In this document: positions 8,076 to 29,047 of the stretch, piece after piece
How positions within the stretch are numbered: the first letter of the stretch is position 1
How the letters are laid out: each line of letters opens with the position of its first letter
Assembly: GCF_051903065.1 (NCBI RefSeq)
Contig: NZ_CP178438.1
DNA length: 64,000 bases
Source of the DNA: Escherichia coli
Lineage (GTDB): Bacteria > Pseudomonadota > Gammaproteobacteria > Enterobacterales > Enterobacteriaceae
Direction: 5' to 3' (one strand)
The notes under the pieces: model-generated
Seen by the model: only the letters and a program-made list of their open reading frames with translations
Databases searched by the model: none
What the model was told of the DNA's origin: nothing
Translations under genes and position numbers: made by a program

Positions 8076-8166
8076 TGCTGTTTCCCTGAAAGTGCAACCC
8101 TGACTCACGTCTGTACCAGTCCCCGGGCATTCTTCCATTCATTTACTTTTTATAAGGAATCATCTC

Positions 8167-9513: not shown

Positions 9514-9888
9514 GTGTCAGACACTCTCCCCGGGACAACGCATCCCGACGATAACAACGACCGCCCCTGGTGGGGGCTACCCTGCACCGTGACGCCCTGT
9601 TTTGGGGCACGTCTGGTGCAGGAGGGTAACCGGTTGCATTACCTTGCAGACCGCGCCGGTATCAGAGGCCGGTTCAGCGACGCGGATGCGTACCATCTGG
9701 ACCAGGCCTTTCCGCTGCTGATGAAACAACTGGAACTCATGCTCACCAGCGGTGAACTGAATCCCCGCCATCAGCATACCGTCACGCTGTATGCAAAAGG
9801 GCTGACCTGCAAAGCCGATACCCTCAGCAGTTGTGGTTACGTTTATATGGCTGTTTATCCGACACTGGCACCCGCAACCACCTCATAA
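9514..9888 (+). CDS. cbeA: CbeA (YeeU) antitoxin of the CbtA/CbeA type IV toxin-antitoxin system
   Basis: 124 aa; near identity to recalled YeeU (MSDTLPGTT...WWGLPCTVTPCFGARLVQEGNRLHYLADRAGIRG). Confidence 0.9.
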   Translation: MSDTLPGTTHPDDNNDRPWWGLPCTVTPCFGARLVQEGNRLHYLADRAGIRGRFSDADAYHLDQAFPLLMKQLELMLTSGELNPRHQHTVTLYAKGLTCKADTLSSCGYVYMAVYPTLAPATTS

Positions 9889-9934
9889 CCCCGAATATCT
9901 CACCTTTAGCACTACCAGTTACAGAGAACTTAAG

Positions 9935-10312
9935 ATGAAAACATTACCTGACACACACGTACGGGAGGCATCGCGCTGCCCGTCTCCCGTCACCATCTGG
10001 CAGACACTGCTCACCCGACTGTTGGACCAGCATTACGGCCTCACACTGAATGACACACCGTTCGCTGATGAACGTGTGATTGAGCAGCATATTGAGGCAG
10101 GCATTTCACTGTGCGATGCGGTGAACTTTCTCGTTGAAAAATACGCACTGGTACGTACCGACCAGCCAGGATTCAGCGCCTGTACCCGTTCTCAGTTAAT
10201 AAACAGTATTGATATCCTCCGGGCCCGCCGGGCAACCGGCCTGATGGCCCGCGACAATTACAGAACGGTAAATAACATTACCCTGGGTAAACATCCGGGG
10301 GCGAAACAATGA
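9935..10312 (+). CDS. cbtA: CbtA (YeeV) toxin, cytoskeleton-binding type IV toxin
   Basis: 125 aa from ATG 9935 (MKTLPDTHV...); matches recalled YeeV (LNDTPFADERVIEQHIEAGISLCDAVNFLVEKYALVRTDQPGFSA); directly downstream of cbeA. Confidence 0.9.
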   Translation: MKTLPDTHVREASRCPSPVTIWQTLLTRLLDQHYGLTLNDTPFADERVIEQHIEAGISLCDAVNFLVEKYALVRTDQPGFSACTRSQLINSIDILRARRATGLMARDNYRTVNNITLGKHPGAKQ

Positions 10313-11093: not shown

Positions 11094-11960
11094 ATGTCTG
11101 AAATCACAGCCCCCCGTCCGGAAGTGGTCAACGGGCATACGGACGTTATCGGCTCAACCAGCATCCGCCACATTCTGGCTGTACGAAAGAGTGCGCTGCT
11201 GCAAATCGACACACTTATCCGGCAACTGGCAGAAATCTCGGTGCTGACGGAAAGCATCGGAGGTAAAACTGCACTGGACTGGGCCATGAAACAGGATTTT
11301 CGCTGCGGTTGCTGGCTGATGGAAAAACCGGAAACCGCAATGAAAGCCATCACCCGCAACCTTGACCGCGAAATCTGGCGTGATCTGATGCAACGTTCAG
11401 GGATGCTGTCATTAATGGATGCACAAGCCCGTGATACATGGTACCGGTCACTGGAGTACGATAATTTTCCGGAAATCAGCGAAGCAAATATCCTGAGCAC
11501 GTTTGAACAACTGCACCAGAACAAAGATGAAGTGTTTGAGCGAGGGGTGCTCAACGTTTTCAGAGGACTGAGCTGGAATTACAAAACCAATTCACCCTGC
11601 AAATTTGGCAGTAAAATTATCGTCAACAATCTGGTGAGGTGGGACCGGTGGGGGTTTCATCTTATCACCGGACAACAGGCCGATCGACTTGCCGATCTGG
11701 AAAGAATGCTGCACCTGTTCAGCGGCAAACCGATCCCCGACAACCGGGAAAACATCACCATTCATCTGGATGATCACATCCAGTCTGTTCAGGGTAAAGA
11801 GGACTATGAAGATGAGATGTTCAGCATCAGATACTTTAAGAAGGGCTCCGCGCACATCACGTTCAGGAAACCAGAGCTGGTTGACAGGCTTAATGATATT
11901 ATTGCCAGACACTACCCGGAAGCCCTGGCAAGCACAGTGAACAAAAGCCGCAAGGCATAA
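11094..11960 (+). CDS. Hypothetical protein (conserved island cargo)
   Basis: 288 aa uninterrupted ORF with AAAGGAA ribosome-binding site upstream; no catalytic motif recognised. Confidence 0.6.
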   Translation: MSEITAPRPEVVNGHTDVIGSTSIRHILAVRKSALLQIDTLIRQLAEISVLTESIGGKTALDWAMKQDFRCGCWLMEKPETAMKAITRNLDREIWRDLMQRSGMLSLMDAQARDTWYRSLEYDNFPEISEANILSTFEQLHQNKDEVFERGVLNVFRGLSWNYKTNSPCKFGSKIIVNNLVRWDRWGFHLITGQQADRLADLERMLHLFSGKPIPDNRENITIHLDDHIQSVQGKEDYEDEMFSIRYFKKGSAHITFRKPELVDRLNDIIARHYPEALASTVNKSRKA

Positions 11961-12031
11961 AAGAGGTATTTTACAATTCGCGAATATTAACTATTATTAA
12001 TTGATAGTAATCAATCGGCGAGAAAATAACC

Positions 12032-12295
12032 ATGCCTACCAGTGTATCCCTCAGTCCTTACTTTGAAACGTTTATCCGCGAACAAATAGAAAGTGGTCGG
12101 TACAACAATACAAGTGAAGTCATTCGTGCCGGACTTCGTGCTCTGGAAGAACGGGAACAGCAGATAAAGCTTGAATCACTCCAGAGCGCCGTGGCCGCAG
12201 GCATCAACAGCGGTGAAAGTAAAAGTGCTGAAGAGGTATTCGGGCGACTGACGCACAAATACAAAAAGATGGCAGAAGGTGAACAGCCAATATGA
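12032..12295 (+). CDS. parD: ParD-family type II antitoxin (RHH)
   Basis: 87 aa; start overlaps ParE by ATGA; motif SEVIRAGLRALEEREQ typical of ParD/COG3609. Confidence 0.8.
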   Translation: MPTSVSLSPYFETFIREQIESGRYNNTSEVIRAGLRALEEREQQIKLESLQSAVAAGINSGESKSAEEVFGRLTHKYKKMAEGEQPI

Positions 12296-12618
12296 AACTG
12301 ACTGTTTCACCATTAGCAGAACACGATCTTGAAGCTATAGGTGACTGGATCGCTCAGGATAATCCTGTCCGTGCAATCAGTTTTACCGAAGAGCTTTACC
12401 AACAATGTCTGTTGATAGCCGAATCGCCAGTACTCTACAGAGAAAGACCCGAGTTAGGGGCTGGGATCAGAGGTTGTTCGTATGGTCGTTACCTTCTGCT
12501 GTTCAGGGTACTGGATACTGAAGTTCGTATCGAACGTATCGTTCATGGTTCCCGGGATATCAACAGGGTACTTGCAGAGCCAGACGACAAACCATCAGAT
12601 CATTTCTGGCAGCCATAA
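12292..12618 (+). CDS. parE: ParE/RelE-family type II toxin
   Basis: 108 aa; 4-bp overlap with the upstream antitoxin; RelE/ParE-like size and context. Confidence 0.8.
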   Translation: MKLTVSPLAEHDLEAIGDWIAQDNPVRAISFTEELYQQCLLIAESPVLYRERPELGAGIRGCSYGRYLLLFRVLDTEVRIERIVHGSRDINRVLAEPDDKPSDHFWQP

Positions 12619-12895
12619 ACAAAATCTGTGCGTTAACGCTCCCTAACACAGGTAGCCAGGTATTTTATAAATCTCTGTATTTTGTTGTCACTTCGATTCC
12701 GCGATTCAGCATATCGAACCAGACAAAATGATTACAACAAACCACAAGAAAGAGGGATTATAGCGTCAAAAGAATTCGAATTGCACATGGGGGCCTCATT
12801 GGTGGCCTCAAAAAGAACAAGGATAAAACAGTCGATACAAAACAATTGGTTATATAACCAGTTTCATTCCGAGTCCGGGCACCACTATTCATAAG

Positions 12896-12920
12896 GCCTC
12901 GCTGCAAAGCGGGGCTTTTT
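12896..12920 (+). terminator. Rho-independent terminator
   Basis: GCCTCGC-TGCAAA-GCGGGGC hairpin (one G-U pair) followed by TTTTT. Confidence 0.5.
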
Positions 12921-13244: not shown

Positions 13245-13928
13245 TTAACTCTCTTTTCCCCACCTGAGAAGCACCTCTTCCGCAATCCCCACAGGCAAAA
13301 ACTCCTGCTCCAGACGACCACGCGGTAAACGGGTTAAGTAGCGATAAAAATCGGCCTCCTCGTTAAGCAAGCCATCAGGTACAGCTTCCTTCGCTATGAC
13401 CGGTTCTGGAACGGCGCTATGACTGGCATACTGCTCAAACAACTCACGGTTCATGAGCAGGGCATCAAGCGTCGGACGACAACGCCTGGCTCTCGCCAGC
13501 ATCAGTAGTCCCCAGCTATCCATGTCCCCCCAATAGGCAACGCGTTTTTCATCCAGAACAGAACTGGATAGCCATTGCACGTCCAGGCCACAGCCTAAAA
13601 TCGCGATAGTGTCAGATAATGCTGGAAGATGATGCAAACACTGCTCATTTTCAACCACCAGCACTTGCGACGCGGGTAATGTTGTTTCCGCCAGTTCCGC
13701 CGTTGTTACCCGGCATTTTTTAAAAGGAAGCAAGCCGGGTGATAATGGTACAACTAAAACCCAGTGACTGGACTCATCAAAAGCATCAAGAAAAGTTGTT
13801 AATCCCTGCTCGCTGGCTTCTCCTGAAAATCGCACGTCCAACTGACCATAGTGTTGTTCCACAAACGTAATTTCGGCAACCGTCCACTGTGCCCAGTGAT
13901 TACGGTAATGCTGCGTTTTATCCACCAT
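13245..13928 (-). CDS. Toprim-like (Topo VI-A/Spo11/JetD C-terminal-type) domain protein, standalone
   Basis: 227 aa; motifs VLVVENEQCLHHL and YWGDMDSWGLLML resemble the Toprim glutamate and DxD signatures of DUF2220/JetD; family assignment from recall only. Confidence 0.5.
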   Translation of the reverse strand: MVDKTQHYRNHWAQWTVAEITFVEQHYGQLDVRFSGEASEQGLTTFLDAFDESSHWVLVVPLSPGLLPFKKCRVTTAELAETTLPASQVLVVENEQCLHHLPALSDTIAILGCGLDVQWLSSSVLDEKRVAYWGDMDSWGLLMLARARRCRPTLDALLMNRELFEQYASHSAVPEPVIAKEAVPDGLLNEEADFYRYLTRLPRGRLEQEFLPVGIAEEVLLRWGKES

Positions 13929-13945: not shown

Positions 13946-15400
13946 TCAGTCTCGTTGTTTTTCCTGCGCCAGCGTAAAGATTTGAGCCCGGAGTTGTTGT
14001 TCAGCCTGCAGGACCGCCTGCTGACGCTGCAGTGAGACTTCAGGGAGCAACTTCAACTGCCGAAGCTGCTCTTCTACCGGTACGGTCTGCCGGAAGCTTG
14101 TCAGCATGCCAAAGACCTGCGATTTAAGCTCACTGACGGTAATGTATTTTCCTCTCTGACCATCAAGCGCATTCAGTTTATGGGCAAGTGCCTGAAGCTG
14201 TGTCATTCCTTCATGCCAGCCATTCATTGTATCGACAGGAAGTACTGAGACATTAACCTGTTGCTGCCACTGCTGTGTCAGAGGCTTAGCCTGCTCCGGC
14301 CACAACGACTGAGCTTGTTCTGTAAGTTTTCTGGCATAAGTGATATTCCAGTCAGGAGGTGATTTATCCAGTCGGGCCAGCTGCTGCTGTGTCTGTGCAA
14401 TAAGATCCTGCGGTAACGGAGTCTGCTGACGCAACATCCGCAGCTGTTCAGACGTGAGAGGTGCAGGGAACGGAGCCAGTGAAGCAGCTAGCTGATTCTG
14501 TAGAGGGTCTGGCCGGTGAATAAAATGCCAGCTCCACACTGAAACTATGCTTATCACCAACATGGTACACATCCCGGCGGCAAAGGATTTCCACTTTTTA
14601 ACCGGAACAGGCATTGTCGACAGCACTTCCACATTCGGCTGCGACTGCGGTTCCCGTTGAGCAACGTAAACCCACTGTACTGCACTCCCTGGCGTATCTT
14701 CATTCGGTCCACCAGAAAAGTCTCTCGTGGATGCTATCGCATCATTTGTCACGGTGGCAGGCAACCCGATACCAGGCTGAATGCTCGAGCCGGTACTGGT
14801 TATGCCATTGCTGTTTTCCAGCCGGGCAGCACTATTGTGCATCAGGATACGCAATGTATCGAGTTGGCTGAGATGTTTTAGCTCCAGGCGCTGTAGTACC
14901 TCTCCAAGGCCTGTAAGCAGTTGCTCCACCCGGTACAGCTGGTTGATGTCGCTGTAATTTAACGGGAGCGATCGCATTCGTTGCTGCAGGCGCTGACTCA
15001 GGCTGCTGAGGATTTCCATGCGGGCATGAACTGGATGCGGCCACAGAGTCCCCCACTGATGGCTTATCAGTGCCTCGAGTATCGCCAGCCCTTCATTGAG
15101 CCCGAATAAGCCAGCCAGCTGCGTACGCGCAAGCGTATACCAGGCTGCCGTTTGCAACTCCACGCCGTTCTGCTCAAACAGTGAGAGACAAAGTTTTTCG
15201 ACATACTGCCAGCTCACATCCGGGCGAGCCGGATGTGTTAGCTTACTCAGTTCATCACGCAGGGCGGCATAATCCGGTAGCATGCGCGGGTCGCCGCCGG
15301 TTTTTAATTTACGCTTGGGGATATCATTCATGGTCAGTTGTCCATTAGACGTACCAGGGGCTATTAAAGGGTATTGTTTATGCGGCTTCACTTTCTGCAT
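13946..15400 (-). CDS. ImpA_N-domain, membrane-anchored type VI secretion accessory protein (VasL/TagA-like)
   Basis: N-terminal GGDPRMLPDYAALRDEL...DVSWQYVEKL...LQTAAWYTLAR...GLNEGLAILEALISHQWGTLWP matches the ImpA_N signature; one predicted transmembrane helix (FAAGMCTMLVISIVSVWSW); start may be the internal ATG at 15331. Confidence 0.7.
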   Translation of the reverse strand: MQKVKPHKQYPLIAPGTSNGQLTMNDIPKRKLKTGGDPRMLPDYAALRDELSKLTHPARPDVSWQYVEKLCLSLFEQNGVELQTAAWYTLARTQLAGLFGLNEGLAILEALISHQWGTLWPHPVHARMEILSSLSQRLQQRMRSLPLNYSDINQLYRVEQLLTGLGEVLQRLELKHLSQLDTLRILMHNSAARLENSNGITSTGSSIQPGIGLPATVTNDAIASTRDFSGGPNEDTPGSAVQWVYVAQREPQSQPNVEVLSTMPVPVKKWKSFAAGMCTMLVISIVSVWSWHFIHRPDPLQNQLAASLAPFPAPLTSEQLRMLRQQTPLPQDLIAQTQQQLARLDKSPPDWNITYARKLTEQAQSLWPEQAKPLTQQWQQQVNVSVLPVDTMNGWHEGMTQLQALAHKLNALDGQRGKYITVSELKSQVFGMLTSFRQTVPVEEQLRQLKLLPEVSLQRQQAVLQAEQQLRAQIFTLAQEKQRD

Positions 15401-15995
15401 ATTCGAGACTCTGCAGATACTTTAGCGCCAGCGGGTCAGCAATATATTCAACCTGCCCGTGGTGACGCTCCACCTCATCGATTATCCGGCTGAGTTCACC
15501 CCGGAAAAACTTCTTATGCAGGTTGATTCGGTTAATCCGGTAGCTTTCCAGAGGGTCATGTAGTGTCTTTTCAAGCGCAGGAGCGTCATCGCTGGAAATC
15601 ATGGCGTGTGCGTCAAAATCAAACAGCACGGCTGCCCCGCTCAGTTCTTTCACGCGCTCCATAGGCTCCAGCCGTCGGGCCATGCCGATTTTGAAGACGT
15701 TTTCACCGAAGGAGCCGATATTAGAAATTACATACACATGTCCCTGCTTCGTGAACTGGGCCATAGATTTGGCGCGTTCATACTGCTGATGAACGTCCTG
15801 TATTTTCCGCTCCAGCTCCAGACGCTGTCTTTCCAGTTCATCCCTGTGAGCACCTTCTACGGCGAGCAGGGCTTCTTCCAGGAATACCGGTACACATTTT
15901 ACCGACCGGTCGTCGATACGAAGAACGAGTGCGCCAATATCAAATACTCCCCACTCAACCAGCAGGTCCGTAACGGATGTACTGATCAGTGTCAA
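15378..15995 (-). CDS. T5orf172 (GIY-YIG-like) domain protein with N-terminal coiled coil
   Basis: GHVYVISN...FKIGMARRLEPMERVKEL...LEKTLHDPL...INLHKKFFRGEL matches the T5orf172/Mug113 pattern; overlaps tssE by 41 bp and the VasL ORF by 23 bp, so the start is uncertain. Confidence 0.55.
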   Translation of the reverse strand: MTLISTSVTDLLVEWGVFDIGALVLRIDDRSVKCVPVFLEEALLAVEGAHRDELERQRLELERKIQDVHQQYERAKSMAQFTKQGHVYVISNIGSFGENVFKIGMARRLEPMERVKELSGAAVLFDFDAHAMISSDDAPALEKTLHDPLESYRINRINLHKKFFRGELSRIIDEVERHHGQVEYIADPLALKYLQSLEYAESEAA

Positions 15996-16425
15996 GATAC
16001 TGCTGTTGCTTCAGGTGTCTCAGCATCACTCGTCCCTCGGGCATAAACTCGGTGCCGTAACGCACGAGGCCAATCCCCTTAAGCTCAGCATCAATGGCAT
16101 AACGAAGCTCGCCGGGGACGCTCTGCTCCAGCAGGATGACAGTAATTTTTTTCAGGCGCGGTTCGTATTTGAGCAGGACGGCAGACAATGTGCCCATCAG
16201 CTCATGGGCCGTTCCCGGCATGCCCTGGAGAACTCTGGTCATATCCGGCAGGCCATAGTCCGGCAGATGCGCCAGCGTGCCGGCACGGCAGTTGAGGATA
16301 CGCTGCATATTGTCGAGTACGGACAAAATGACCTGGTTCTGCTCGCTGACCTGGTGCAGGTCGAGGCCGCCGGTGAAGTTGCCATAAAGAGTTTCATACA
16401 ATGAAGGACGGGATGACTCACTCAT
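15955..16425 (-). CDS. tssE: Type VI secretion baseplate subunit TssE (gp25-like)
   Basis: 156 aa; motifs SLYETL, LDNMQRILNCRAGTLAHLPDYGLPD, LKYEPRL typical of the TssE/GPW-gp25 family. Confidence 0.75.
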   Translation of the reverse strand: MSESSRPSLYETLYGNFTGGLDLHQVSEQNQVILSVLDNMQRILNCRAGTLAHLPDYGLPDMTRVLQGMPGTAHELMGTLSAVLLKYEPRLKKITVILLEQSVPGELRYAIDAELKGIGLVRYGTEFMPEGRVMLRHLKQQQYLDTDQYIRYGPAG

Positions 16426-16960
16426 CTTTCAGCGCCTTCAGGGTCAGGCGGTTGTTACCGGCCTCAATCACCCGGGCTTTATCCGGATCAAGGTCATCAC
16501 GGCTCAGCACCACCCGCCAGGTGTTGTTCACCTGGTCTGGCGACATAAACATGCCAGCCACTGCGACATACTGCGCATTTTCATCCATCGGCATATCCAC
16601 CATCACCGCCCCACCCGGCTGCAGGCGGATGTCTTTCTCAGCTACCAGGTCTGCTTTAATGGCCTGACTGTCCGCCCTGAACAGTGACGGGTAGTCCGTC
16701 GTGTCAAAGGTTTTGCGGTCTTTAAGCTGGTAAATACGCACCACCGTCGACAATGCCACGCCGCCTGCATTGCTGTTCACTGCCTCACGGGCCCGAATAT
16801 CCAGATGCAGAGTTTTTATCTGCTTATAAAAAATCGATTTGGTCACAGCAACGGTGCCGTCTGTCACTTTTTGCGTCAGCCCACAGCCCGCCAGCATCAA
16901 GGTGATACCCGCGGCCAGCGCAGCCAGAGGAAATTTACCAGCGGTAATCGCCATCTTCAT
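16418..16960 (-). CDS. tssJ: Type VI secretion lipoprotein TssJ (SciN/VasD-like)
   Basis: Start MKMAITAG with lipobox LAGC; VVRIYQLKD...LQPGG...AVAGMF pattern of the TssJ family; ATG at 16960 checked on the sequence. Confidence 0.75.
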   Translation of the reverse strand: MKMAITAGKFPLAALAAGITLMLAGCGLTQKVTDGTVAVTKSIFYKQIKTLHLDIRAREAVNSNAGGVALSTVVRIYQLKDRKTFDTTDYPSLFRADSQAIKADLVAEKDIRLQPGGAVMVDMPMDENAQYVAVAGMFMSPDQVNNTWRVVLSRDDLDPDKARVIEAGNNRLTLKALKDE

Positions 16961-17580
16961 CGGTCTCCCTGCGGTGAATATTTTCCTGTACCCGCTCATA
17001 GCGGCCCAGATTAATGGTGATTGTTTTTGGGTGTGATGCGGTCCTGGCCGCATTCAGCGGTCGCATCACGGCAGTGCGGCCCAGTTGCACCGCCCCTGCG
17101 TTGGGTTTACTGCTCATGGTCGCGTCAGGAAGCAGACTGCGATCGACACACAGCTGTAGCCGCACATCCAGGCGAGACCCAAGATACACGTGCAGGAGCG
17201 CCATCAGGTCCGCGTGAAGCTCCCCGCCCGATAACCAGCCCTGCACTTCTGCCGGGTCAGTGGTGGTCAGGCGCATCAGCACCTGGCTGTTCACGTCGGC
17301 GGCATAGTTGCCCATCACCGGTCGGTTTGTCAGGGTGACGGGCTGGCTAACGCTCATGGTCAATGGCTTCTTCAGCGGCACACGGCGTTTGTCGTGGTGC
17401 CAGATTTTCGCCTGCGTGTTGGGTGCCAGCAGGCGCACCAGCGAGGCCATGCCTTCTGCGGTACGCCCCGGCAGTAACATGACCGGCAGCAGTGCCAGAA
17501 AGCGCGAAGCCGGGGTCGCGATACTGTCCGTGCAGCCGTTAATCCCGAGCCCGGCCAGTCCCAGCAGGTACTGCGAGGTT
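16935..17580 (-). pseudogene. C-terminal fragment of a type VI secretion-associated gene, truncated by IS1
   Basis: The reading frame runs without a native start into the IS1 end at 17581; identity (TssG or other) not resolved. Confidence 0.5.
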
Positions 17581-17595
17581 GGTAATGACTCCAAC

Positions 17596-18099
17596 TTATT
17601 GATAGTGTTTTATGTTCAGATAATGCCCGATGACTTTGTCATGCAGCTCCACCGATTTTGAGAACGACAGCGACTTCCGTCCCAGCCGTGCCAGGTGCTG
17701 CCTCAGATTCAGGTTATGCCGCTCAATTCGCTGCGTATATCGCTTGCTGATTACGTGCAGCTTTCCCTTCAGGCGGGATTCATACAGCGGCCAGCCATCC
17801 GTCATCCATATCACCACGTCAAAGGGTGACAGCAGGCTCATAAGACGCCCCAGCGTCGCCATAGTGCGTTCACCGAATACGTGCGCAACAACCGTCTTCC
17901 GGAGCCTGTCATACGCGTAAAACAGCCAGCGCTGGCGCGATTTAGCCCCGACATAGCCCCACTGTTCGTCCATTTCCGCGCAGACGATGACGTCACTGCC
18001 CGGCTGTATGCGCGAGGTTACCGACTGCGGCCTGAGTTTTTTAAGTGACGTAAAATCGTGTTGAGGCCAACGCCCATAATGCGGGCTGTTGCCCGGCAT
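17596..18099 (-). CDS. insB: IS1 InsB
   Basis: 167 aa matching recalled IS1 InsB. Confidence 0.9.
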
Positions 18100-18293
18100 C
18101 CAACGCCATTCATGGCCATATCAATGATTTTCTGGTGCGTACCGGGTTGAGAAGCGGTGTAAGTGAACTGCAGTTGCCATGTTTTACGGCAGTGAGAGCA
18201 GAGATAGCGCTGATGTCCGGCGGTGCTTTTGCCGTTACGCACCACCCCGTCAGTAGCTGAACAGGAGGGACAGCTGATAGAAACAGAAGCCAC
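18018..18293 (-). CDS. insA: IS1 InsA
   Basis: 91 aa [43 protein letters not shown]... matches IS1 InsA. Confidence 0.9.
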
Positions 18294-27904: not shown

Positions 27905-29047
27905 TTAAATCTGCTTTTCATACAATCGGTAACGCTTGTACGGCTCCGCCCCAATGCGTTCCAGCATGTTATTCATGCCTGTATTGGTTTCGAGGATCCA
28001 TGACATCTCCAGCGCATCGATCTTCCGGCGGGCAAACGGATCGCGTAAGGCTTCAATCAATAACAGCGCAATCACCGGGCCGATGCGGCTGAACTGATAC
28101 TCGTCGCGCACGCCCATCAGCGGTACTCTCGCAGTTCGCACACCGCTGACTTTCAAACGCCACAGCAATTTTGCCCAGCCGAAGGGAAAGAGCGATCCGT
28201 TCAGATCGGCAATCGCCTCGTTGATGTTCGGCAAGCCGACAATAAACGCGCAGGGTGCAGAATCAATCTCAGCGATGTAGATCATATCGTCCGGCACCAG
28301 ATATTTAAGTTGGTCGCCCATGGTCGCGAATTCATGTTCGGTAAACGGCACAAATCCCCAGTTGTGCTGCCAGCCAGAGTTGAAAATCTCACGCAGGATC
28401 TGCATCTCTTCGGCAAACCGCTGACGATTGATGCAGCGAATGGTCACCTTTTTGCGCACCTGATCCATCAGTTTTTTTAGCGCCGGAGAGAAAGTGAGAT
28501 CGGTTCGCTGCATCCACCACGCCAGTAAATCAATGCCTTTGTGATAACCCAGTTGTTCAATATGCGCGGCATACCACGGTTTGCCGTGTGGCATCATCGC
28601 ACAGGGTGGTGTATCGAAACCTTCAATCAGTAATCCGCTTTCCTGATTGATATTCAGGCTGAAAGGACCGCTGATCTTACTTGCACCTTGTGACTTCAAC
28701 CACGCTTCCGCTGCGCCAAACAACGCGGCAAAAACCTGCGGATCATCAATGGCGTCAATCATGCCGAAATGACCGGTATCTTCGCCGTAACGCTCGCGGT
28801 GTAAGGTATCGATTTGCGCGGTAATACGCCCAACTATCTGCCCGGCTATTTTTGCCACCCACGCCTGCCAGATGATATGGTCCGTCCCCGGATTTTTCAC
28901 AGACAAATGCTCGTTGCGTTCAATGAATAAAGGGGGTATCCAGTTTGGATCGTCGGGATAAAGTGATGACGGAAAAGCGATAAATGCCTTAAGGTCATTT
29001 TTATTAGTTACTTTTTCAATTTGAATCATTAGCAGATCGCATTCCAT
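27905..29047 (-). CDS. yghO: YghO, predicted acyl-CoA N-acyltransferase fold (candidate ceramide-synthase-like enzyme)
   Basis: 380 aa intact ORF matching recalled YghO; acyltransferase fold is recalled annotation, not verified here. Confidence 0.75.
   Translation of the reverse strand: MECDLLMIQIEKVTNKNDLKAFIAFPSSLYPDDPNWIPPLFIERNEHLSVKNPGTDHIIWQAWVAKIAGQIVGRITAQIDTLHRERYGEDTGHFGMIDAIDDPQVFAALFGAAEAWLKSQGASKISGPFSLNINQESGLLIEGFDTPPCAMMPHGKPWYAAHIEQLGYHKGIDLLAWWMQRTDLTFSPALKKLMDQVRKKVTIRCINRQRFAEEMQILREIFNSGWQHNWGFVPFTEHEFATMGDQLKYLVPDDMIYIAEIDSAPCAFIVGLPNINEAIADLNGSLFPFGWAKLLWRLKVSGVRTARVPLMGVRDEYQFSRIGPVIALLLIEALRDPFARRKIDALEMSWILETNTGMNNMLERIGAEPYKRYRLYEKQI

Follow-up and report, generated by a model that had tools for sequence, protein, structure and literature searches.

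The stretch of Escherichia coli DNA analyzed here, 64,000 nucleotides in length and referred to as the window, contains two short overlapping genes that a sequence-only reading had taken for a ParDE-type toxin-antitoxin pair. In that reading the pair was a module of its own between a prophage module and a T6SS remnant, and it was suggested to stabilise the neighbouring DNA. This raises the question whether the two genes form an intact ParD-ParE operon, and to which of the adjoining blocks of accessory DNA they belong. As detailed below, the pair is with high probability a canonical type II ParD-ParE operon, predicted to be functional, and forms the final cargo cassette in a CP4-type island integrated at the tRNA-Phe gene pheV.

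Two overlapping genes form a ParD-ParE operon

The coordinates of all features are given in Table 1. A six-frame list of open reading frames contains both genes on the plus strand with exactly the boundaries that the sequence-only reading had assigned to them, and the stop codon of parD and the start codon of parE share the 4 bp ATGA at 12292-12295, as had been claimed. Through this overlap parE is translationally coupled to parD. The ATGA overlap is kept in seven of eight orthologous loci, the eighth having an overlap of 1 nt, while parD and parE are paired in all eight, and the pair is kept across Enterobacterales. A type II toxin-antitoxin operon is recognised by two small neighbouring genes on one strand, with the antitoxin gene leading, an overlap or a short gap between them, and conservation of the pairing; all of these hallmarks are found here.

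Table 1. Features of the locus, in positions of the window.
Feature	Position	Strand	Description
DUF4942 gene	11094-11960	+	PF13708, 2e-69; final gene of the CP4-type island backbone, directly 5' of the cassette
ParDE cargo cassette	about 11918-12689	+	772 bp; limits are homology breakpoints relative to ParDE-less islands
Candidate sigma-70 promoter of parDE	11970-11997	+	-35 TTTACA 11970-11975, 16-nt spacer, -10 TATTAT 11992-11997
Candidate ParD operator	11984-12017	+	conserved AT-rich repeat block, overlaps the -10 element
parD	12032-12295	+	87 aa, ATG start; ribbon-helix-helix antitoxin
parE	12292-12618	+	108 aa, ATG start; ParE-family toxin
Shared terminal segment of tRNA-Phe-type islands	12690-12884	+	about 195 bp, ends in attR
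attR	12866-12884	+	ATTCCGAGTCCGGGCACCA, final 19 nt of tRNA-Phe; 247 nt beyond the end of parE
JetD fragment (Wadjet), C-terminal half	13245-13928, homologous part about 13245-13842	-	PADLOC JetD1 positions 185-381 of 383
T6SS remnant	13946-18100	-	VasL, truncated GIY-YIG nuclease gene, TssE, TssJ, truncated TssG, then IS1 abutting glcA

The product of the first gene carries an N-terminal ribbon-helix-helix ParD domain and scores above the curated thresholds of both PF03693 (ParD_antitoxin; 62.7 bits against a cut-off of 21, E 4.5e-17) and TIGR02606 (96.8 bits against 46.2, E 5.7e-28, profile positions 2-69 of 70). By sequence it also matches solved ParD chains, namely 7b22 (5.4e-11), 3kxe_C (9.9e-11) and 8c24_C (1.7e-9), and in near-identical E. 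coli loci RefSeq names the product 'ParD family antitoxin'. The product of the second gene matches PF05016 (ParE_toxin) at 65.3 bits against a cut-off of 23 (E 7.9e-18), over profile positions 3-88 of 89 and thus over its full length. As evidenced by these profile matches the antitoxin gene does come first, and a chance pair of open reading frames is excluded at the level of sequence profiles, as both proteins lie far above the curated cut-offs of their families. Nei-Gojobori estimates against the seven orthologous loci, taken from comparisons with unsaturated dS, yielded dN/dS values of 0.05-0.12 for parD and 0.06-0.09 for parE, from which it follows that both genes are under purifying selection. 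A second ParD or ParE paralogue was not supported in the window, where the search gave a single weak ParE-like tblastn match. This match lies at 28103-28348 on the minus strand within the YghO reading frame (27905-29047), with 26% identity over 84 aa, E=0.008 and no Pfam family, and it was dismissed as a chance similarity.

The toxin is complete and of the ParE type

PF05016 covers ParE toxins as well as mRNA interferases of the RelE/StbE type, which share the same superfamily fold, and the RefSeq name of the toxin in near-identical E. coli loci is 'RelE/ParE family toxin'. We compared the protein with both branches. In a sequence search of the PDB it matched ParE-type chains only, with 6x0a_A as the best hit (2.8e-13, 39% identity), followed by 7ycs, 3kxe, 5ceg, 5cw7, 7r5a and 8c24; there was no RelE chain among the matches at E below 1. 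An AlphaFold2 model built on 36 homologues has a pLDDT of 85.6, with disorder confined to residues 96-108, and its predicted elements are strand 2-5, helices 7-21 and 25-44, strands 59-64, 67-73 and 77-85, and helix 86-94. When this model was compared with the PDB using Foldseek, the top 22 matches were all of the ParE type, with target-normalised TM-scores of 0.72-0.88, and matches of the RelE type (RelE, YafQ, YoeB) began at rank 23 with lower TM-scores. The predicted ParE-type fold, an N-terminal helical hairpin with a three-stranded sheet, is thus nearer in the model to solved ParE proteins than to RelE, YoeB or YafQ. Sequence matches and predicted fold both favor ParE over RelE, which supports an assignment to the ParE branch of the superfamily. 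An mRNA interferase of the RelE/StbE type was rejected: TIGR02385 reaches 24.3 bits and remains below its cut-off of 27.9, the ParE structures fit better than those of RelE, YafQ and YoeB, and the partner protein is a ParD rather than a RelB. The ParDE-type assignment of the sequence-only reading is therefore upheld by Pfam, by NCBIfam, by the sequence matches in the PDB and by the predicted fold of the toxin.

The same reading had held that a toxin truncated relative to its homologs would speak against the assignment, and this is not what we find. With 108 aa the toxin has a normal length, the homologues ranging from 95 to 116 aa, and in an alignment of 36 sequences it keeps all six invariant and all 20 near-invariant positions. 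The C-terminal tail of 15 residues (94-108) is variable across the family and predicted to be disordered. When a large protein collection was searched, 122 relatives were recovered from Enterobacterales, in genera that include Serratia, Salmonella, Enterobacter, Pantoea, Erwinia, Dickeya, Photorhabdus, Xenorhabdus, Proteus and Providencia; the intact ones mostly measure 95-111 aa.

Normal length, complete conserved residues and low dN/dS rule out a truncated or pseudogenised toxin. The pair might nevertheless be a selfish remnant, decaying or neutral and inactive in this particular strain. Its surroundings are rich in remnants, among them the JetD fragment, the truncated T6SS genes and IS1, and some other E. 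coli copies are frameshifted or truncated, as in clusters P0095, P0090 and P0094. The copy in the window, however, is intact and corresponds to RefSeq WP_000779483.1 over DNA that is 100% identical, dN/dS is well below 1 for both genes, and the promoter and operator block described below is conserved. Taken with these observations, an inactive remnant is hardly probable at all.

A conserved repeat block overlaps the candidate promoter

The sequence-only reading had proposed a search for a promoter with an operator palindrome upstream of position 12032. The candidate promoter found there matches the sigma-70 consensus at 10 of 12 positions, and its -35 and -10 positions align with TTGAGT/TTGAAT-17-TATTAT in the island copies from Serratia and Enterobacter; note that the promoter scan as a whole was unenriched, with two sites found against 2.3 expected from shuffled sequences. 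The candidate operator block comprises three 10-nt units that each start with TAA, TAACTATTAT, TAATTGATAG and TAATCAATCG (11988-12017). It holds an imperfect palindrome centered near 11999 and a perfect one, ATTGAT-agta-ATCAAT, at 12000-12015. An alignment of the upstream regions of eight loci (two from E. coli and one each from Enterobacter, Serratia, Pantoea, Photorhabdus, Dickeya and Proteus) shows 19 invariant columns. Of these, 12 lie in 11984-12009, with divergent sequence to either side, and the DNA homology to stand-alone loci of Pantoea begins at precisely 11984, 48 nt before the ATG of parD. The perfect palindrome was considered as the operator by itself, but it is specific to E. coli, and the broader block with its 10-nt periodicity was preferred. 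An autorepressing ribbon-helix-helix antitoxin would require a conserved repeat block of this kind, lying over the -10 element and over the start site presumed near 12004, and the block is a candidate for binding by ParD.

A further promoter-like match, GTGACA-18-TAAAAT at 12662-12691 on the minus strand, would read antisense into parE and is probably due to chance, the scan being unenriched relative to shuffled sequences. Between 9000 and 15000, no Rfam match to a structured RNA was obtained at E up to 0.1.

The pair is the terminal cargo of a CP4-type island at pheV

The window represents the E. coli pheV locus. In two near-identical annotated loci the genes upstream of the pair encode, in this order, an inovirus Gp2 family protein, a GTPase, DUF905, DUF932, an antirestriction protein, RadC, DUF987, CbeA/CbtA, DUF5983, DUF957 and DUF4942, directly followed by ParDE. 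This is the backbone of a cryptic CP4-type genomic island integrated at tRNA-Phe, with no recognisable prophage, and the upstream block is thus not the prophage module that it had been taken for. The island end with ParDE is found at two chromosomal places, beside cadC in one strain and at the glc operon in the other. CbeA/CbtA is itself a toxin-antitoxin pair, of type IV, located at 9514-10312 according to the annotation of both near-identical loci (L001, L002), and as it lies some 2 kb upstream of ParDE the island carries two toxin-antitoxin modules.

Homology to islands that lack ParDE ends at 11917-11922 and restarts at 12690-12694, as determined by BLAST and alignments. The cassette thus starts 14 codons before the stop codon of the DUF4942 gene and runs up to the start of the shared terminal segment. 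Those last 14 codons (11918-11960) vary with what follows them, be it ParDE, AbiE or nothing, which places the cassette junction inside the coding sequence and implies that each cargo brings its own C-terminus of DUF4942.

The terminal segment ends in a copy of the 3' end of tRNA-Phe, a match seen just once in the window, against a chance expectation of zero. ARAGORN detected no intact tRNA gene in the window, in which this 19-nt copy is the only trace of one. The DNA 3' of 12884 aligns with the flank of an unoccupied pheV, in an alignment that takes in the tRNA terminator hairpin (12893-12918), and as the following DNA is the native downstream flank of pheV we identify the copy as attR. The integrase of the island and attL lie outside the window. 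The terminal segment also starts with 10 nt, TTCGATTCCG (12692-12701), that are identical to the T-arm region of tRNA-Phe and lie some 170 nt upstream of attR; they may be a degenerate older att site, hinting at tandem accretion.

On the downstream side, the T6SS remnant begins beyond the native pheV flank and the JetD fragment. That a T6SS remnant is present had been correctly recognised, and the cluster is degraded, with truncated GIY-YIG and TssG genes; its gene names were taken from the PGAP annotation of a genome of 99.7% identity (L002). The JetD fragment, in which homology to full-length JetD/DUF3322 genes of other E. coli ends near 13842, is the remnant of a defense system between the pheV flank and the T6SS genes. 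A position of the pair directly at a junction of island and T6SS was rejected, as the pair is separated from the T6SS genes by attR, by native pheV flank over about 160 nt and by the JetD fragment. The claim that the pair marks the junction of two accessory blocks holds only approximately: the true boundary is attR, 247 nt downstream, and the T6SS remnant starts only at 13946. The corrected map of the locus reads CP4-type island, ParDE cassette, attR, native pheV flank, Wadjet remnant, T6SS remnant.

Among 5426 complete E. coli genomes, 472 (about 9%) contain an 851-bp segment around the pair, at 505 places in all. The unit of DUF4942, ParDE and island end is present in about 470 E. coli genomes, while only three have the same downstream join to the JetD fragment and VasL, and for this reason the pair belongs to the island. 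Rather than standing alone between two blocks it is terminal cargo inside the upstream one, co-occurring with the island and not with the T6SS remnant. A stabilising effect, if there is any, would consequently be exerted on the island rather than on the DNA on both sides.

ParDE or AbiE occupies the attR-proximal slot

In Serratia marcescens and Enterobacter ludwigii the same island slot holds ParDE, and in Pantoea, Photorhabdus, Dickeya and Proteus close relatives exist as stand-alone chromosomal pairs without an island. Due to these stand-alone relatives, island stabilisation is not the sole context of such pairs. They also bear on a different role, in which ParD or ParDE would mainly regulate the mobile element by controlling island excision, replication or neighbouring genes. 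The case for this is one of analogy: PrpA/PrpT acts on plasmid copy number and PfiA/PfiT on Pf4 production, and Foldseek places both PrpT (7ycs) and PfiT (9w3a) near the present ParE in structure. With orthologues occurring outside islands, however, we regard a primary role as an element regulator as very improbable.

Within E. coli the DUF4942 gene is found at 8106 places in 3938 of the 5426 complete genomes, and the terminal segment at 1178 places in 1113 genomes. The interval between the two is filled, in E24377A and in MNCRE44 (ST131), by a 1441-bp cassette encoding DUF6088 (AbiEi) and AbiEii, which occurs at 677 places in 667 genomes. Together, the 505 ParDE and 677 AbiE places make 1182, to be compared with the 1178 terminal segments, and each of ten sampled loci with the terminal segment, the window included, carries either a ParDE or an AbiE cassette. 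Sampled DUF4942 islands at the tRNA-Ser gene serX or near yicL, on the other hand, end directly after DUF4942. These counts are consistent with an either/or occupation of the attR-proximal slot by ParDE and AbiE, while falling short of proof.

In Salmonella enterica (L013 4107-6336 and L014 1466-3695) a truncated DUF4942 gene is followed by DUF6088/AbiEi, AbiEii, a 5'-truncated parE without parD and an attR-like match, an arrangement that looks like the scar of an AbiE cassette overwriting ParDE. At one and the same chromosomal place, next to an IS110 remnant and then kpsF and the capsule genes, ParDE is found in AR_0067 (L024 1839-2425) and AbiE in MNCRE44 (L003 2664-3985). With either pair at the same kps-adjacent place, the association of AbiE with capsule in CFT073 (PMC12488582) may reflect the end of the island rather than the capsule locus.

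AbiEi/AbiEii of PAI-pheV in CFT073 (c3681-c3682) occupies exactly the same slot, from DUF4942 to the terminal segment that ends in attR. The two cassettes differ in that AbiE, a type IV toxin-antitoxin system, consists of unrelated families (DUF6088/AbiEi and the nucleotidyltransferase AbiEii), with 1441 bp in contrast to the 772 bp of ParDE. The shared slot raises the alternative that ParDE serves mainly in abortive infection, where a phage would deplete ParD or stop host transcription and free ParE would kill the cell, the slot as such being one for defense cargo. That AbiE, a known abortive-infection family of toxin-antitoxin systems, fills this slot in its 667 genomes, that the CFT073 pair at the slot alters phage susceptibility (PMC12488582), and that a Wadjet fragment lies nearby would all fit. 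The shared location is circumstantial, however, no phage-defense role for ParDE was found in the literature consulted, and neither ParD nor ParE nor DUF4942 matched a PADLOC defense model at E up to 0.01. Accordingly the pair was rejected as a known anti-phage system, and a main role in abortive infection is unlikely.

A more far-reaching proposal, which we put forward as rather doubtful, is that the attR-proximal end of CP4-type islands at tRNA-Phe is an obligatory toxin-antitoxin slot with ParDE and AbiEi/AbiEii as exclusive alleles, one of them able to overwrite the other, as the apparent Salmonella scar would suggest. Beyond addiction, such alleles could mark 'incompatibility' lineages of islands that compete for pheV and pheU, or could supply alternative abortive-infection defenses.

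Predicted function and comparison with known systems

Both genes are intact members of the ParD and ParE families; they are coupled in translation, evolve under purifying selection and travel together with the island. From what the family does elsewhere, they most likely constitute an autoregulated addiction module with a gyrase poison that stabilises the island. ParD dimers would bind the conserved repeat block over the -10 element through their N-terminal ribbon-helix-helix domains and repress the operon, and the C-terminal part of ParD would wrap around ParE and neutralise it. The conserved repeat block and the pairing of the two genes in all eight loci lend this part of the model indirect support. 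ParD is expected to be proteolytically labile, as in its family. If the island were lost after excision, or expression stopped, free ParE would poison DNA gyrase and block replication, such that cells losing the island would be penalised and the island stabilised. Inhibition of gyrase has been described for ParE toxins (Jiang 2002 and Ames 2019, in the statements of PMC11869752 that cite them). For the present toxin we infer the same target from family and predicted fold; note that the closest solved relative, a Mesorhizobium ParE, does not by its degree of identity settle the target.

The system was compared with a reference set of ParD/ParE pairs comprising RK2 ParDE, Caulobacter ParDE1 (3kxe), Vibrio cholerae ParDE2 (7r5a), Mesorhizobium ParDE3 (5ceg/6x0a) and M. 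tuberculosis ParDE1 (8c24). It resembles them in being an antitoxin-toxin operon with overlapping genes, a ribbon-helix-helix ParD, a ParE fold and similar protein lengths, and the target-normalised TM-scores against the reference ParE toxins are 0.80-0.88. The best solved relatives come from different pairs, Mesorhizobium ParE3 for the toxin and V. cholerae ParD2 and Caulobacter ParD1 for the antitoxin. A literature search on the exact proteins, the pair or its context returned no paper. In the setting of the element, the nearest parallel is ParESO/CopASO of CP4So in Shewanella oneidensis, likewise with a ParE-family toxin on a CP4-type element integrated at a tRNA or tmRNA gene. According to the statement in PMC12548467 that cites Yao 2018, this ParE-type pair stabilises the CP4So prophage. 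The systems are likened by description, and they differ in that the antitoxin there is CopA and not ParD, as well as in host and element.

In itself the pair is unremarkable within a well-known family, with ParD and ParE already named by RefSeq in hundreds of E. coli genomes, and it carries little weight; the useful outcome is the corrected map of the locus. The one point that is mildly new is the choice between ParDE and AbiE beside attR in islands of the tRNA-Phe type. This choice bears on the reading of the AbiE-capsule association in CFT073, and on how islands of the PAI-pheV type, with their capsule and virulence genes, stay in the genome.
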